64,000 nucleotides of DNA from Shigella phage ESh28. A program made the translations under genes and the position numbers. Shown here piece by piece: positions 3,181 to 48,058 of the stretch; the first letter of the stretch is position 1; each line of letters starts with the position of its first letter. The stretch lies in sequence record ON528738, one strand, 5' to 3'. The notes under the pieces were generated by a model. That model searched no databases, was not told the DNA's origin, and saw only the letters and a program-made list of their open reading frames with translations.

Positions 3181-3720
3181 ATGAGAACATTTTTAACTGG
3201 TCCTTATCTATCCCTGATGAATGCTTTTACACACCATTCTGATGCTAGAGTAGAAGAAATTTGTAAAAACGATTATATCCCACCATTTGAAGACTTACTT
3301 AAGCAGTATTGCACACTTCGACTAGATGGTGGACGTCAATCCGGTAAATCAACTGCAGTAACTAATTTTGCCGCTAATTGGTTGTATGACGGTGGAACAG
3401 TTATTGTTCTTTCTAATACTTCAGCTTACGCTAAAATTTCCGCAGATAATATTAAAAAGGAATTTTCGCGTTATTCTAATGATGATATTCGATTCCGCTT
3501 ATTTACTGATTCTGTGCGCAGTTTTATTGGTAATAAAGGAAGCAAGTTCAGAGGTTTATCGCTTTCGCGAATTTTATATATAATTGATGAGCCTGTCAAA
3601 TCTCCTGATATGGATAAGATTTATAGTGTCCATATTGACACTGTACACTGCTGCTGTAATATTAAATGTTGCATTGGTGGTATTACTCGTCCACAGTTTT
3701 TCGTAATCGGAATGCAATGA
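3181..3720 (+). CDS. hypothetical protein with P-loop-like GGRQSGKST motif
   Basis: ORF with Walker A-like motif; weak SD; ATGA overlap with next ORF. Confidence 0.4.
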   Translation: MRTFLTGPYLSLMNAFTHHSDARVEEICKNDYIPPFEDLLKQYCTLRLDGGRQSGKSTAVTNFAANWLYDGGTVIVLSNTSAYAKISADNIKKEFSRYSNDDIRFRLFTDSVRSFIGNKGSKFRGLSLSRILYIIDEPVKSPDMDKIYSVHIDTVHCCCNIKCCIGGITRPQFFVIGMQ

Positions 3721-4046
3721 TGACAGACACTCAGCTTTTCGAATATCTTTATTTTTCGCCAAAAACTATTAAAAATAAATTGGTGAATCATTTTGAAATT
3801 TTGGCAAATAACAACGTCTTGAGCGAATTTTATCCTAAGCAATACAAATTACAAAAAGGCGTATTCAAAGGATGCAGAGTTTTGTGTACTGCTCCTAATG
3901 CACGGTTAATGAATAAAATTCCATATTTTACCATGGAATTTATTGATGGTCCTTTTAAAGGACTAATCACACAGAGTTTAATGGCATATGATTCTGAGCC
4001 ATTTTTAATTAAAGAACAATCTTGGATAAATTTATTTTCTAATTGA
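3717..4046 (+). CDS. hypothetical protein
   Basis: ATG (MMTDTQ...) overlapping stop of previous gene; start chosen inside tracked ORF 3666-4046. Confidence 0.4.
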
Positions 4047-4053
4047 GGTTTAT

Positions 4054-4416
4054 ATGAAAGCATATCAAATTCTTGAAGGCACACACAAAGGTACTATTTA
4101 TTTTGAAGATGGTATTCAAGCACGAATTATTGTCTCTAAAACCTTTAAAGAGGACTCTTTTGTAGACCCAGAAATTTTCTACGGTTTGCATTCCCGTGAA
4201 ATTGAAATTGAAACACAACCTACAGTTAAAATTGAAGGTGGTCAACACCTGAACGTTAACGTTCTGCGTCGTGAAACTCTGGAAGATGCAGTTAAGCATC
4301 CGGAAAAATATCCGCAGCTGACCATCCGTGTATCCGGTTATGCAGTTCGCTTTAACTCTCTGACTCCGGAACAGCAGCGCGACGTTATCGCTCGTACCTT
4401 CACCGAGAGCTTGTAA
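4054..4416 (+). CDS. autonomous glycyl radical cofactor, GrcA/YfiD-like (T4 Y06I-type)
   Basis: C-terminal half near-identical to the E. coli YfiD glycyl radical domain ([14 protein letters not shown]...[29 protein letters not shown]); host-like GC-rich codons. Confidence 0.85.
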
Positions 4417-4637
4417 TGGCAAAGATAATTATTGAAGGTTCTGAAGATGTGCTAAATGCTTTCGCCGAGTGGTTTAGTAATTCAGGCGAACAGCAATTTA
4501 ATGAAGCATGGAACATGGGTGATATTAATGGAATTTATCCTACGACAGAAATTTCTGTTCAGGGATATGGCATTCATGAACCTATTCGTTTAGTTGAATA
4601 TGATTTATGCACTGGTGAGGAAGTCAAATATGATTGA
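4416..4637 (+). CDS. hypothetical small protein
   Basis: ORF with ATGG overlap to GrcA-like stop. Confidence 0.45.
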   Translation: MAKIIIEGSEDVLNAFAEWFSNSGEQQFNEAWNMGDINGIYPTTEISVQGYGIHEPIRLVEYDLCTGEEVKYD

Positions 4638-4896
4638 AGATATTAAAGGTTATAAGCCACATACCGACGAAAAAATCGGTAAAGTAAATGCTATCAAAGA
4701 TGCTGAAGTTCGTTTAGGACTTATCTTTGATGCTTTATACGATGAATTTTGGGAAGCATTTGATAGCTGTGAAGATGATGAACTCGCGAAGAATTATGCT
4801 GAAAGCCTCGATCAGTTAACTATTGCTAAAACGAAACTCAAAGAAGCCAGTATGTGGGCTTGCCGTGCTGTGTTCCAACCAGAGGAAAAATACTAA
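4630..4896 (+). CDS. hypothetical small acidic protein (vs-region)
   Basis: ATG at Met 13 of tracked ORF preceded by GGTGAGGAAG; 88 aa. Confidence 0.45.
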
Positions 4897-5174
4897 TGGC
4901 TCAATTAAGTGCAGGGTTTGGTTATGAATATTATACTGCACCTCGTCGTGTATCTGCCGCTCCTAAGAAAATTCAAAGTCTTGATGACTTCCAAGAAGTA
5001 ATTCGTAATGCTTTCCAGGACTATGCGCGTTATCTTAAAGAAGATTCACAGGACTGCCTCGAAGAAGATGAAATTGCTTACTATGCGCAGCGTCTTGAAC
5101 AGCTCAAAAATCTACATGAGGTTCGTGCAGAAGTTTCAAAGTCTATGAATAAATTGATCAGATTTAAAGAATAA
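4896..5174 (+). CDS. hypothetical small protein (vs-region)
   Basis: ATG ([13 protein letters not shown]...) preceded by AGAGGA, overlaps upstream stop; 92 aa. Confidence 0.45.
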
Positions 5175-5176
5175 CT

Positions 5177-5206
5177 GTTTACTTTTCCTCTTGACTGTGG
5201 TATAAT
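5177..5206 (+). promoter_or_regulatory. T4-type early promoter
   Basis: GTTTAC, spacer, TGTGGTATAAT just upstream of regB. Confidence 0.6.
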
Positions 5207-5233
5207 TTTTCTATCAGTTAAGAGGAGAATAAC

Positions 5234-5695
5234 ATGACTATCAATACAGAAGTTTTTATCCGTCGAAATAAGCTCCGTCGTCACTTTGAGTCGGAGTTTC
5301 GTCAAATTAACAATGAGATTCGTGAGGCATCAAAAGCAGCAGGGGTCTCATCGTTTCATCTAAAATATTCTCAGCATCTTCTTGATCGTGCAATTCAACG
5401 GGAGATTGATGAGACATATGTTTTTGAATTATTCCATAAAATAAAAGACCATGTTTTAGAAGTTAATGAATTCCTGAGTATGCCTCCACGTCCTGACATT
5501 GACGAGGATTTTATTGATGGGGTTGAATATCGTCCTGGACGTTTAGAAATCACAGATGGAAATCTTTGGCTTGGATTTACAGTTTGTAAACCTAATGCGA
5601 AGTTCAAAGACCCGTCACTTCAGTGCAGGATGGCAATTATCAATAGTCGCCGTTTACCAGGAAAGGCTTCTAAAGCAGTAATTAAAACTCAATGA
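5234..5695 (+). CDS. regB: RegB site-specific endoribonuclease
   Basis: 153 aa, N terminus MTINTEVFIRRNKLRRHFESEFRQINNEIRE as in T4 RegB; strong SD. Confidence 0.85.
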   Translation: MTINTEVFIRRNKLRRHFESEFRQINNEIREASKAAGVSSFHLKYSQHLLDRAIQREIDETYVFELFHKIKDHVLEVNEFLSMPPRPDIDEDFIDGVEYRPGRLEITDGNLWLGFTVCKPNAKFKDPSLQCRMAIINSRRLPGKASKAVIKTQ

Positions 5696-5702
5696 GGTAA
5701 GC

Positions 5703-6248
5703 ATGAGAAAAGCACTACTCGCTGGTCTATTGGCCATTTCAATGATGGCACATAGCTCCGAGCATACTTTCAGTAATGTCCAACTCGATAACATGCGTTA
5801 CGCGTATCAATTCGGGGAACAATTTTCTAAGGATGGAAAATATAAAACACACAAAAATATCCACAAGAGCGGATTAGGTCATATAATGGCTGCTATTTTA
5901 TGGCAAGAAAGCTCTGGCGGAGTTAATTTAAAATCTAAACCAAAGCATCACGCCTACGGAATGTTCCAAAATTATTTGCCTACTATGCGAGCAAGAGTTA
6001 AGGAACTTGGTTATAATATGACCGATGCTGAAATAAAAAGAATGTTGAATAAACGATCCAATTCAGCTTCCTGGGCGTACATTGAACTTTCTTATTGGTT
6101 AAATATACATAAGGGCGATATAAGAAAAGCAATATCCTCTTATAATTCGGGATGGAATGTTAAAGCTGGTTCTAAATATGCTTCTGAAGTCCTAGAAAAG
6201 GCTAATTACCTTAAAAATAATAAACTTTTGGAAATAGTAAATGACTAA
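5703..6248 (+). CDS. secreted lytic transglycosylase-like protein
   Basis: Signal peptide; motifs E-S-S-G ... G-M-F-Q ... S-Y-N-S-G resemble family 1 lytic transglycosylase signatures. Confidence 0.55.
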   Translation: MRKALLAGLLAISMMAHSSEHTFSNVQLDNMRYAYQFGEQFSKDGKYKTHKNIHKSGLGHIMAAILWQESSGGVNLKSKPKHHAYGMFQNYLPTMRARVKELGYNMTDAEIKRMLNKRSNSASWAYIELSYWLNIHKGDIRKAISSYNSGWNVKAGSKYASEVLEKANYLKNNKLLEIVND

Positions 6249-45015: not shown

Positions 45016-45044
45016 TTTACAAGCTGACAAGACTATGGTATAGT
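45015..45044 (+). promoter_or_regulatory. T4-type early promoter with -10 inside stem-loop
   Basis: GTTTAC; inverted repeat ACAAGACT / AGTCTTGT flanks TATGGTATAGT. Confidence 0.55.
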
Positions 45045-45073: not shown

Positions 45074-45256
45074 ATGGAATTGGTAAAGGTAGTTTTTATG
45101 GGGTGGTTTAAGAATGAAAGTATGTTTACTAAAGAAATCACAATGATGAAAGATGACGTTCAATGGGCTACTACTCAATATGCTGAAGTTAATAAAGCAT
45201 TAGTTAAAGCTTTCATTGATGACAAGAAAGTATGTGAAGTGGATTGCCGAGGATAA
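45074..45256 (+). CDS. dmd: Dmd antitoxin (discriminator of mRNA degradation)
   Basis: 60 aa, MELVKVVFMGWFKNESMFTKEITMMKDDVQWATTQYAEV as recalled for T4 Dmd; position just after 41. Confidence 0.8.
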   Translation: MELVKVVFMGWFKNESMFTKEITMMKDDVQWATTQYAEVNKALVKAFIDDKKVCEVDCRG

Positions 45257-45257
45257 T

Positions 45258-45515
45258 ATGCATATTGTTTTATTTAAACCTACTCCATATAACGTCAGGA
45301 AAAATACTCAATTCAAAGCACTTATTGCAGATACGTGGGAATTGGTGTTAGATATTCCAGCAGAAGAAAGTCCTCCATTTGGTCGAGTGGAATTTATTAA
45401 GTTTGCTGTACGTCCTACGAAGAGACAGATTCGTCAGTGTAAAAGGTATTTTCGTAAAATCGTTAAGCTAGAGAAACAGTTTGTAACATGTGATTATGCA
45501 GAAGTTTTAAAATAG
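45258..45515 (+). CDS. hypothetical protein (61.4-position)
   Basis: Internal ATG after GAGGATAAT, 85 aa. Confidence 0.4.
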   Translation: MHIVLFKPTPYNVRKNTQFKALIADTWELVLDIPAEESPPFGRVEFIKFAVRPTKRQIRQCKRYFRKIVKLEKQFVTCDYAEVLK

Positions 45516-45575: not shown

Positions 45576-45869
45576 ATGAAAAAATTTATCTTTGCTACAA
45601 TTTTTGCTTTAGCTTCTTGTGCTGCTCAGCCTGCTATGGCAGGATATGATAAAGATTTGTGTGAATGGTCTATGACTGCAGATCAGACTGAAGTTGAAAC
45701 TCAAATTGAAGCGGATATTATGAATATCGTTGAGCGCGATCGTCCTGAAATGAAAGCTGAAGTGCAAAAACAACTTAAGTCTGGTGGTGTAATGCAGTAT
45801 AATTATGTTCTGTATTGCGATAAAAACTTTAATAACAAAAATATCGTAACCGAAATCACAGGCGAATAA
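45576..45869 (+). CDS. sp: Spackle periplasmic protein Sp
   Basis: 97 aa with signal peptide MKKFIFATIFALASCAAQPAMA; matches T4 Sp. Confidence 0.8.
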   Translation: MKKFIFATIFALASCAAQPAMAGYDKDLCEWSMTADQTEVETQIEADIMNIVERDRPEMKAEVQKQLKSGGVMQYNYVLYCDKNFNNKNIVTEITGE

Positions 45870-45870
45870 T

Positions 45871-46503
45871 ATGATTTATTATATGCACAAAAATCCACCG
45901 TTTAAATACGGTAAATTTCCTGATGCACAATGTTATAACATAACGCCTGATGAAAATAACCGTGGATATCTTATTGGCACAATTTTTGTAATTGTTAAAG
46001 ATAACGAAATCGTTGCCTGGGCAGATTTTAAAGGTACAACATATGATGTTAATCCGGTGCCTTTCACATATTACAATTTAATGGATTTGGCATACGATTA
46101 TAATTGGTTTAATCATGACACGTTGGCTCATATTGAAGGTGTAGGATTTGACATCTCTTATTCTAGCTACTCATTGTGTCCTATGAGTCGGGCTCATAAA
46201 GAACCTGAATATTTTTCATTTAGGAAACGTGTAAACTTTAAACGCAACACAGAGTATGTCGGTGGAATCTTTGTTAAAGATAATCGAATTACTCGCATTA
46301 TTTATCCTTTGGGCTGTGGTCAAAAAGATATTGATGTTGATTTAGACTTTACTGAAAACATCATTAATCATATTGCTTCTGTGTATTTTGGTATCGATCA
46401 CAAAATTGTAATATGTGGATATGAATTACCGTTTGAAGAACAACCTAAAGTAAAAGTTTCTATTGACGATCAAATTTTTAATGCTTTTATGAATAAAGGT
46501 TAA
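45871..46503 (+). CDS. hypothetical protein (61.2-position), shares C-terminal tail with next ORF
   Basis: 210 aa; C terminus ...SIDDQIFNAFMNKG. Confidence 0.5.
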   Translation: MIYYMHKNPPFKYGKFPDAQCYNITPDENNRGYLIGTIFVIVKDNEIVAWADFKGTTYDVNPVPFTYYNLMDLAYDYNWFNHDTLAHIEGVGFDISYSSYSLCPMSRAHKEPEYFSFRKRVNFKRNTEYVGGIFVKDNRITRIIYPLGCGQKDIDVDLDFTENIINHIASVYFGIDHKIVICGYELPFEEQPKVKVSIDDQIFNAFMNKG

Positions 46504-46507
46504 TATG
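46459..46507 (+). repeat. direct repeat copy 1 (about 49 bp)
   Basis: TCTATTGACGATCAAATTTTTAATGCTTTTATGAATAAAGGTTAATATG, repeated at 46817 with 3 mismatches. Confidence 0.75.
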
Positions 46508-46861
46508 TATAGTTCTGAATTTTCATATTTAAAAATGGAAAAAATTTCATACGATTTTATAGATGAAAAGGTTTATTACAGTTTCCATGAACCACGTTTT
46601 AATAGTGAGGTTGGGTTTATTGTAGTAAAAGACAATTTCATTTTAAAGATATATTCGGCATTAAAGGATTTTCACTACGAAAATATTAACCTAAAATTTG
46701 ATAAAGAAAACGTTCGTAATTGTGCAGTAACAATTACAGGAAATAAAGGCACATGTGTTATGCTATCTGATGAAATTAATGATTTGCTAAATGATGCCGA
46801 AAAGGTTGCTATTCCATCTATTGATGACCAAATTTTTAATGCTTTTATGAATAGAGGTTAA
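46505..46861 (+). CDS. hypothetical protein flanked by direct repeats
   Basis: 118 aa; C terminus ...SIDDQIFNAFMNRG encoded by repeat copy 2. Confidence 0.45.
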   Translation: MYSSEFSYLKMEKISYDFIDEKVYYSFHEPRFNSEVGFIVVKDNFILKIYSALKDFHYENINLKFDKENVRNCAVTITGNKGTCVMLSDEINDLLNDAEKVAIPSIDDQIFNAFMNRG

Positions 46862-46865
46862 TATG
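46817..46865 (+). repeat. direct repeat copy 2 (about 49 bp)
   Basis: TCTATTGATGACCAAATTTTTAATGCTTTTATGAATAGAGGTTAATATG. Confidence 0.75.
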
Positions 46866-47027
46866 AAAACATATAAAGAATTTATTAAAGAAGATATGGT
46901 AGCTGGAGATTCAGGTGGTAATCCTGAAAATATCTCTACTGGAACAACATCAGGTGCTGTAGTAAATAAAGGTCCTGAACAGATTCCTAAAAAGAAAAAA
47001 GAGGAATCTAAAGAAAAAGAAGAGTAA
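46863..47027 (+). CDS. small ORF with capsid-targeting-sequence-like N terminus
   Basis: 54 aa; MKTYKEFIKED resembles internal protein CTS; GAGGTTAATATG start; low-complexity Lys/Glu tail. Confidence 0.35.
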   Translation: MKTYKEFIKEDMVAGDSGGNPENISTGTTSGAVVNKGPEQIPKKKKEESKEKEE

Positions 47028-47029
47028 AA

Positions 47030-48058
47030 ATGTCATCAATACCTTGGATTGATAATGAGTTTGCGTATCGTGCATTAGCTCATTTACCTAAATTCACACA
47101 AGTAAATAATAGTTCAACTTTTAAATTGCGGTTTAGATGCCCTGTTTGTGGAGATTCAAAAACCGACCAGAATAAAGCTCGTGGATGGTATTATGGTGAT
47201 AATAATGAAGGAAATATTCATTGTTATAACTGTAACTATCATGCACCAATCGGAATATATTTAAAGGAGTTTGAACCTGATTTATATCGTGAGTATATCT
47301 TTGAAATAAGAAAAGAAAAAGGTAAAAGTCGTCCAATAGAAAAACCTAAAGAACTTCCTAAACAACCTGAGAAGAAAATAATTAAATCTCTTCCGTCATG
47401 CGTTAGATTAGATAAACTGGCGGAAGACCATCCAATTATAAAATATGTAAAAGCTCGTTGTATTCCAAAGGATAAATGGAAATTTCTTTGGTTTACAACC
47501 GAATGGCCTAAATTAGTTAATAGCATAGCACCGGGAACATACAAAAAGGAAATTTCTGAGCCTCGTCTTGTTATTCCAATTTATAATGCTAACGGAAAAG
47601 CCGAGTCTTTTCAAGGACGCGCATTAAAGAAAGATGCTCCTCAAAAATATATCACCATCAAAGCTTATCCTGAGGCAACAAAAATTTACGGTGTTGAACG
47701 AGTTAAAGATGGTGATGTATATGTTCTAGAAGGACCTATAGATTCGCTTTTTATTGAAAATGGTATAGCTATTACGGGTGGTCAATTAGACCTAGAAGTT
47801 GTTCCATTTAAAGATAGACGAGTGTGGGTTTTAGATAATGAACCTCGTCATCCTGACACTATCAAGCGAATGACTAAATTAGTTGATGCAGGAGAAAGGG
47901 TTATGTTTTGGGATAAATCTCCCTGGAAATCAAAAGATGTTAATGATATGATTAGAAAGGAAGGTGCAACCCCTGAACAAATTATGGAATATATGAAAAA
48001 TAATATTGCCCAGGGGTTGATGGCTAAAATGCGGCTATCTAAATATGCTAAGATTTAA
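47030..48058 (+). CDS. 61: DNA primase gp61
   Basis: 342 aa; N-terminal zinc ribbon CPVCGDS ... CYNCNYH; matches T4 gp61. Confidence 0.9.
   Translation: MSSIPWIDNEFAYRALAHLPKFTQVNNSSTFKLRFRCPVCGDSKTDQNKARGWYYGDNNEGNIHCYNCNYHAPIGIYLKEFEPDLYREYIFEIRKEKGKSRPIEKPKELPKQPEKKIIKSLPSCVRLDKLAEDHPIIKYVKARCIPKDKWKFLWFTTEWPKLVNSIAPGTYKKEISEPRLVIPIYNANGKAESFQGRALKKDAPQKYITIKAYPEATKIYGVERVKDGDVYVLEGPIDSLFIENGIAITGGQLDLEVVPFKDRRVWVLDNEPRHPDTIKRMTKLVDAGERVMFWDKSPWKSKDVNDMIRKEGATPEQIMEYMKNNIAQGLMAKMRLSKYAKI

Follow-up and report, generated by a model that had tools for sequence, protein, structure and literature searches.

The locus at positions 45,871 to 46,865 of a 64,000-nucleotide (nt) stretch of Shigella phage ESh28 (sequence record ON528738; this whole stretch is called the window below) raises the question why two adjacent genes, adfA and a gene for a protein of 118 amino acids (aa) that follows it, end in almost the same 49 nt, and what this repetition does in the phage genome. 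In an earlier note, made from the sequence alone, the 118-aa gene was taken for a likely recombinational cassette bracketed by direct repeats of about 49 bp. The answer that we regard as probable, though far from assured, is that the 49 bp constitute a conserved coding and translation-start module, which doubles as an in-register joint for homologous recombination. The window belongs to a Tequatrovirus (T4-like phage): its region 45500-47200 matches RB51 and RB68 at 98%, with 664 phage records matched in all. The elements in question are the following.

45871..46503, plus strand: gene 61.2, that is adfA (anti-DarT factor A), 210 aa, Pfam PF23813.
46459..46507, plus strand: repeat copy 1, comprising the last 14 codons of adfA (SIDDQIFNAFMNKG), TAA at 46501-46503, T and the ATG of the 118-aa gene at 46505-46507.
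46505..46861, plus strand: the 118-aa gene (phrog_4122, E 6.7e-73; RB32ORF033c / ar1_036).
46817..46865, plus strand: repeat copy 2, comprising the last 14 codons of the 118-aa gene (SIDDQIFNAFMNRG), TAA at 46859-46861, T and the ATG of gene 61.1 at 46863-46865.

The repeat search returned these two copies as the sole 49-nt family there, identical at 46 of the 49 positions (94%), with a start-to-start distance of 358 nt. With as many as 3 mismatches tolerated, a pattern search of the 64-kb window gave these two sites and no others; in 100 dinucleotide-preserving shuffles it gave none. The edges of the repeat are sharp, as only 15 of the adjoining 45 nt are identical on each side. Each copy is made up of 14 codons (SIDDQIFNAFMN[KR]G), TAA, T and the ATG of the following gene; the open reading frame (ORF) 45871-46503 accordingly ends in ...SIDDQIFNAFMNKG and ORF 46505-46861 in ...SIDDQIFNAFMNRG, the latter being followed by the 54-aa ORF 46863-47027, and the same TAA-T-ATG is found at both stop-start junctions (210-aa/118-aa and 118-aa/54-aa). 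Two of the three mismatches between the copies, GAC/GAT and GAT/GAC, are synonymous, and the third, AAA/AGA, exchanges K for R. Thus, both the repeats with their three mismatches and the common ending of the two proteins were correctly recognized in the earlier note.

Copy 2 contains a GAGG Shine-Dalgarno sequence (46854-46857), which lies 5 nt ahead of the 61.1 ATG and is formed by the last two sense codons, AGA GGT, while copy 1 has a weaker motif of this kind, AAGG (46496-46499). In all the junction sequences the start region of 61.1 is embedded in the tail. The promoter scan detected no promoter-like site overlapping 46459-46507 or 46817-46865, the best such site upstream being at 45016-45044; the terminator scan of the region detected no terminator-like site in or near the repeats; and the folding of the junction RNA did not exceed that of shuffles (z 0.16 and 0.11). 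This makes the repeat a protein tail with a translation-coupling junction rather than a regulatory or structured DNA element, and the idea of a cassette with special ends has to be given up: what stands there is a conserved coding tail together with the stop and with the ribosome-binding site and start for the gene behind it. Given this composition, a crossover between the copies would remove exactly the 118-aa gene, the frame of the upstream ORF and the stop-start junction being kept. A description of the tail as an amphipathic helix was dropped, its hydrophobic moment being 0.282 versus 0.278 in shuffled sequences.

The distribution of the two genes was followed in 50,697 phage records using junction queries composed of 80 nt, the tail and another 80 nt, at least 80% of which is covered only by records with the exact junction. 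The variable slot is delimited by two conserved genes.

45576..45869, plus strand: sp (61.3, spackle), conserved left flank of the variable slot; Pfam T4_Spackle, E 3.5e-45; all relatives have it annotated as sp.
46863..47027, plus strand: gene 61.1, 54 aa, conserved right flank; phrog_1823, E 7e-34; annotated as 61.1 in relatives.

Four gene combinations were found between them.

adfA and the 118-aa gene (junction adfA/118): 157 records, with the window, RB51 and RB68.
The 118-aa gene only (junction sp/118): 141 records, with T2.
adfA only (junction adfA/61.1): about 168 records (325 minus the 157 joined ones), with T4.
Neither gene (junction sp/61.1): about 31 records (172 minus the 141 joined ones), with RB3, RB5-RB10, Nami and BP32.

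The subtractions are needed as the count of 325 includes genomes with both genes, in which the two halves of the query are joined across 358 nt, and the count of 172 includes T2-type genomes joined likewise. The adfA/118 and sp/118 junctions (157 and 141) add up to 298, which is the number of records holding the body of the 118-aa gene. All four combinations exist among phages with flanks 97-99% identical. The presence or absence of the gene between the repeats among close relatives, anticipated earlier, is thereby established, and the related genomes were not found all to carry both genes with divergent junctions. Moreover, the adfA allele (208 or 210 aa), the 3' haplotype of the 118-aa gene (EKVAIP or ENITAP) and the presence of adfA occur in all combinations, which implies that recombination within a few hundred bases is frequent at this locus. 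The record of Yersinia phage phiD1 (L001, NC_027353, 1446-2354), with two full copies of the 118-aa gene and a partial one, was rejected as an array of three tails: the extra partial copy (about 1803-1997) is full of N's, and the record probably reflects an assembly problem caused by the repeats.

The sequences of the junctions agree with this scheme. The single junction of T4 is identical base for base to copy 2 of the window, and thus matches the product expected of a crossover between the repeats; a single repeat copy with no other scar is likewise present in FJ1 and in loci L009-L011 and L021-L023 (about 168 adfA-only records). The earlier proposal that recombination between the repeats would precisely delete or insert the 118-aa gene is thus supported as far as deletion is concerned; as for insertion, a gain is equally possible by ordinary recombination in the flanks, which are well conserved. 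T2, described as naturally lacking adfA (PMC11257639), continues after sp as ...GGTGAATAA TTAGAGGTTAGTATG CAT... (GAATAA-TTAGAGGTTAGTATG). Its 12-nt spacer together with the start codon represents a 13/14-nt remnant of the tail end (TAGAGGTTAATATG), so the T2 type looks like an adfA deletion from an ancestor with both genes. It may be added that T2 (L004, 2185-2553) keeps a 118-aa AdfA-like gene, with the 13-nt scar of the former tail directly after sp. In Nami and RB3 the same scar as in T2 is fused to 61.1, with TTAATATG of copy 2 replacing TTAGTATG of T2; such a junction would be expected if the 13-nt scar had crossed over with the tail that closes the 118-aa gene.

Single-nucleotide polymorphisms (SNPs) in the tail follow a simple rule. 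The T4 allele of adfA ends in AGA GAT (RD) where the 118-aa gene follows (phiD1, KAW1E185, Geo) and in AGA GGT (RG) where 61.1 follows (T4, FJ1, L009-L011, L021-L023); consequently, the 3' end of the tail varies with the gene that comes next and not with the body that it closes. The change of RD to RG and that of TTAGTATG to TTAATATG fit the pattern of a chimeric repeat, and tight linkage to the indel fits them as well. The synonymous GAC/GAT variants were encountered in both copies (in copy 1 of the window and in copy 2 of L006); such sharing of polymorphism by paralogous copies is a textbook mark of exchange. In each of KAW1E185 and Geo, all 13 leading codons agree between the two tails, including 12 of 12 degenerate ones, an agreement for which chance codon choice has a probability of about 1e-3 or less, estimated by hand from the per-codon identity probabilities in the window.

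The tail itself turned out to be old. Three protein families end in it across Tequatrovirus, RB69-like phages, Gaprivervirus and Dhakavirus, and its codons differ synonymously from genus to genus; such an occurrence, in at least three T-even genera, indicates an ancient origin, as well as selection on the tail helix at the protein level. AdfA of RB69-like phages ends in SVDDQIFNAFMNRG, encoded with different synonymous codons (ATA, GCA, CGA), and the same codons are seen in published primers (PMC11257639). In Gaprivervirus (VR7, VR20, VR25, P896, TH15) and in one Dhakavirus (UGJNEcP3), sp is followed by a gene of the 145-aa family and then by a gene of the 118-aa family, 44-50% identical to that of the window, both ending in the tail; JS98-like phages possess the 145-aa gene alone. 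This third family (145-167 aa, phrog_8539) was found in 86 records, and the 118-aa family in about 34 records outside Tequatrovirus. It has only the tail in common with AdfA (16 bits, model positions 197-211), and neither Pfam nor a tail-less search with hidden Markov models (HMM) gave any signal between its body and AdfA. The earlier view of a recent arrangement is therefore not supported: besides the tail being shared across genera with synonymous differences, the body of the 118-aa protein is only about 30% identical to AdfA outside the tail and has orthologues in other genera, which marks an old gene.

The rule seen in adfA applies to the 145-aa family too: within Gaprivervirus and Dhakavirus the upstream tail carries AAG CGA GAT (KRD) before the gene of the 118-aa family and AAT/AAC CGA GGT (NRG) otherwise. 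When 39 nt were compared, tails clustered by lineage and not by gene family: within a genome they differ by 0-3 nt in Tequatrovirus and by 1-6 nt in Gaprivervirus and Dhakavirus, as compared with 7-9 nt between genera for orthologues of the 118-aa family and 5.1 nt on average for AdfA orthologues. The replacement of N by K, common to both tails in most Gaprivervirus genomes, cannot be explained by codon usage. As separate observations, conserved ORFs of 73 and 63 aa are present between the last tail gene and 61.1 in Gaprivervirus and Dhakavirus (L007, L008, L014-L019, L031-L034), and RB69-like phages (L024, 3653-4337) have a 65-aa relative of the 63-aa ORF along with a 155-aa ORF with a 61.1-like C-terminus. 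In some Dhakavirus-type loci (L017, vB_EcoM_005, 3664-5888; L018, VR5, 4952-5608) the primase gene seems to be fragmented, with ORFs of 176-218 aa (...IAVDNGYPDICYRRMIENFNRK) that may be inserted homing-endonuclease-like genes.

What proteins are closed by this tail? The 210-aa ORF encodes a full-length AdfA, as it matches PF23813 over positions 1-211 of 211 with 456.4 bits (cut-off 27; E 1.4e-137), and gene 61.2 is annotated as 'anti-DarT factor A' in the related record PV857777. In its NIINH motif, His167 is aligned with R168 of RB69-like AdfA (R164 if numbered from M5), and His at the position equivalent to RB69 R164 marks the allele type reported to neutralise DarT1 (PMC11257639). AdfA proteins fall into two allele classes, which differ mainly in the first ~60 residues (45871-46060 in the window versus 1393-1580 in T4, L002): the N-terminus is MIYYMHKNPPFKYGKFPDAQCYNIT in the window, as in RB69-type phages, and MLYQMHKCKDTYKYKGAQCYIINRE in T4. 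In addition, AdfA of FJ1 (L027) is chimeric near the C-terminus (ELPFEEQSKVNV), and that of Bas45 (L030) has a two-residue HI insertion, so that adfA itself is mosaic. An internal duplication of a 118-like domain within AdfA was considered and rejected: despite the repeated VKDNxI, hhalign of the N-terminal half against the C-terminal half gave only E 0.03 over 16 columns.

The 118-aa ORF is annotated only as hypothetical (RB32ORF033c, ar1_036), and the literature search, including that by locus tags, found no publication mentioning this gene. Its product is 36% identical to AdfA residues 111-210 over 106 residues (BLASTP, E 2e-9) and matches positions 113-211 of PF23813 with 34.1 bits against a gathering cut-off of 27; all five database clusters of the family carry a precomputed PF23813 match. 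The bodies without tails are collinear with AdfA 110-169 around VGxIxVKDNxI. In an unfiltered search with a tail-less AdfA HMM, four such bodies scored 5.6-11.3 bits, above 200, 199, 200 and 200 of 200 composition-matched shuffles, the body from the window itself scoring 11.3 bits and exceeding all 200, while the tail-less profile-profile comparison of the two families (hhalign) gave only E 0.006 at low probability. AlphaFold models of modest confidence (predicted local distance difference test scores of 59.5 and 69.7) present both proteins as a beta-meander with a helix, the tail forming a separate terminal helix (residues 106-116 and 198-207); of the clusters supplied by the word-indexed protein search, 5 belonged to the 118-aa family and 16 to AdfA, too few for good structure models. 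No relatives were found in the PDB by sequence search with both family profiles, and no PDB entry reached an E below 0.15 when the low-confidence AdfA model was searched with Foldseek. Probably, then, the 118-aa protein and the C-terminal half of AdfA are relatives that diverged long ago. The 118-aa protein resembles AdfA in the tail, the collinear VGxIxVKDNxI core, the similar predicted topology and the location in the same anti-toxin island, but lacks the whole N-terminal half and has Asn where AdfA has the critical His/Arg. As a working hypothesis, it would be a toxin-binding anti-defence factor like AdfA, whose target may be a different DarT variant or another toxin, and the tail would be a structural or partner-binding helix shared by both proteins.

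Three constraints overlap on the 49 bp: the conserved C-terminal helix, the ribosome-binding site, stop and start of the next gene, and homogenisation of the copies at the DNA level. Since the module closes two neighbouring genes, and recombination is so active in T-even phages, it would work as an in-register joint. In the mechanism that we propose, the tail encodes the last 14 residues, a predicted C-terminal helix common to AdfA and its small neighbour, and the final codons (AGA/AAA GGT) with TAA and the next ATG make up the translation start region of the following gene, the genes being joined stop-to-start in one early operon. Homologous recombination between the copies, within one genome or between co-infecting genomes, would drop exactly one gene or, by reciprocal unequal exchange, add one, with no frame or start signal broken; the same exchanges would homogenise the two copies (gene conversion). 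The expected outcome is natural T-even populations with adfA and the 118-aa gene, with either of them alone or with neither. From the anatomy and conservation of the repeat, the four architectures, the exact junctions and the SNP patterns, all of which are observed directly, we infer that crossovers inside the tail, rather than only in its flanks, made the variants.

Several points weigh against this interpretation. The evidence for the proposed unequal exchange is comparative only. The 157, 141, ~168 and ~31 records include duplicate GenBank/RefSeq entries and near-identical isolates and do not represent independent events. The SNP rule could be simple linkage, as the variable codon lies 4-6 nt from the indel, with one ancient event spread by flank recombination. 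In the window, 10 of 12 degenerate codons are identical between the copies versus 6.55 expected, which is marginal (p=0.034), and lineage-specific codon usage could mimic part of the signal of concerted evolution. The kinship of the two proteins is open to similar reservations: the Pfam match of the 118-aa protein to AdfA disappears when its last 15 residues are removed, the homology of the bodies is weak and the structure models are of low-to-moderate confidence. The main rival explanation, to which we give a smaller though appreciable chance, sees in the tail a purely shared ancient functional element and in the variants one or two old events that exchange in the conserved flanks (sp, adfA body, 61.1, primase) later reshuffled, with no causal part for the repeats. 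It is in keeping with the conservation of the tail protein across genera with synonymous differences, with GAGG-N5-ATG inside the tail, with the marginal codon test and with the reassortment of haplotypes, which demonstrates rampant flank recombination; besides, one scar in all 141 T2-type records is consistent with a single event and its subsequent spread. However, the indel is scarless and measures exactly one repeat period, and Nami and RB3 exhibit a second in-register loss, via the 13-nt remnant only and with a chimeric SNP pattern. Polymorphisms common to both copies, the 12 of 12 identical degenerate codons of KAW1E185 and Geo and the independent recurrence of the same pattern in Gaprivervirus and Dhakavirus also speak for exchange between the copies rather than for flank recombination only.

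Explanations of another kind ascribe mobility to the gene with its tail. A dedicated cassette, in which a 358-bp unit (gene plus one tail) would leave the genome as a circle and enter any gene that bears the tail, with the tail as the attachment sequence selected to allow in-frame stacking of anti-defence genes, as in PeSL (promoter and stem-loop) mini-circles or integron cassettes, appears very unlikely to us. A single gene bracketed by direct repeats, three different tail-ending bodies in the same slot after sp, the 145-aa family without detectable AdfA likeness except for the tail and the mini-circles documented in T4-type phages (PMC2839356) would all suit it; yet no recombinase, promoter, terminator or structured site is found in or near the repeat, the neighbours being only dmd, tifA, sp, 61.1 and primase, the tail occurs at this one locus only within the window, and a genome holds only one or two tail genes, the apparent third copy of phiD1 being full of N's. 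Furthermore, the protein-level and translation-start constraints already account for the conservation. Quite unlikely, too, is a freer version, according to which the tail is a selected 'stacking joint', that is a portable C-terminal helix and start signal letting unrelated anti-defence bodies (the AdfA, 118-aa and 145-aa families) plug in frame after sp and pass from one co-infecting T-even phage to another, perhaps in the form of 358-bp circles, in an integron-like array without a dedicated recombinase. Finally, it can hardly be credited that adfA was recently duplicated in part, its 3' half in tandem, and that the repeats are the ends which have not yet diverged: the genes are adjacent and the 118-aa protein does align to the C-terminal half of AdfA, but outside the tail the protein identity is about 30% and the DNA is at random level (15/45 nt next to the repeat), and orthologues (44-50% identity) occupy this position in other genera, where another gene precedes them. 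With bodies so divergent and orthologues so distributed, the duplication, if any, must have been ancient. The conserved module acting as a recombination joint thus remains our preferred reading.

In and around the slot the genes run in the order gp41 helicase, dmd, 61.4 (tifA), sp (61.3), 61.2, the 118-aa gene, 61.1 and gp61 primase, and the region with dmd, tifA and adfA has been named the anti-toxin island (PMC9391042), dmd and 61.4/tifA being the start of its operon.

45074..45515, plus strand: dmd (45074-45256) and 61.4/tifA (from ATG 45258 to 45515), defined by ORFs, annotation in related records and a DUF7279 match.
47030..48058, plus strand: gp61 DNA primase, a conserved core gene, by annotation of the matching records.

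In the ORF list 61.4/tifA opens at TTG (45216-45515 of the window, 99 aa, overlapping dmd); relatives annotate the ATG at 45258 (85 aa, MHIVLFKPTPYN...). An extra 84-aa ORF (MMLVNREYQFKSEEDLEKF...) is situated between 61.4 and sp in some Tequatroviruses (L005 and L025, 2385-2639; L026, Nami, 975-1229) and represents another presence/absence gene of the same island. A further match of the window's 61.1 protein is to phrog_2086 (positions 109-154).

That T-even phages recombine homologously at short repeats is already well known, and the present case is an ordinary kind of phage genome plasticity. Comparable events are those at microhomologies in T4 (Srikant et al., 2022, PMC9391042), where stretches of only 2-10 bp suffice for recombination in the same part of the genome: the place (neighbours of dmd-tifA), the machinery, the short direct repeats and the one copy left are the same, but those repeats are chance ones of 6-10 bp and were seen in the laboratory, whereas here the module is conserved, 49 bp long and known from comparative evidence only. 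Modular shuffling by PeSLs in T4-type phages (Arbiol et al., 2010, PMC2839356; Comeau et al., 2014, PMC4122927) is similar in that short conserved repeats bracket non-essential early genes of a variable region and recombination explains indels between close relatives. PeSLs, however, are intergenic cassettes of promoter and stem-loop terminator, and the present repeat consists of coding sequence and a stop/start junction; with no promoter or stem-loop terminator within it, its interpretation as a PeSL was rejected. The locus differs from integron-like site-specific cassettes in having no recombinase among its neighbours and no structured attachment site in the repeat. In the tail-fibre adhesins of T-even phages, conserved coding motifs (the glycine-rich motifs of gp37/gp38) serve as homology joints for the in-frame exchange of variable host-interaction segments. 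That exchange swaps segments inside one protein, whereas in the present locus the units gained or lost are whole genes, and the start signal of the next gene is part of the joint. A joint made of a coding tail and a translation-start junction common to AdfA-type genes is not described in the literature searched.

The analysis thus draws attention to a widespread AdfA-like gene (about 300 phage records, including T2, which is treated in the literature as lacking adfA), and its location in the dmd-tifA-adfA anti-toxin island makes it a direct candidate for a further anti-toxin factor. The 14-residue C-terminal helix common to three families offers a handle on how AdfA-type proteins act, be it by partner binding or through folding. 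With all four combinations among phages 97-99% identical, the locus offers a neat case from nature in which a module constrained for coding and translation start would also serve as a joint for recombination, which may be of use in understanding and engineering the turnover of accessory genes in therapeutic T-even phages.

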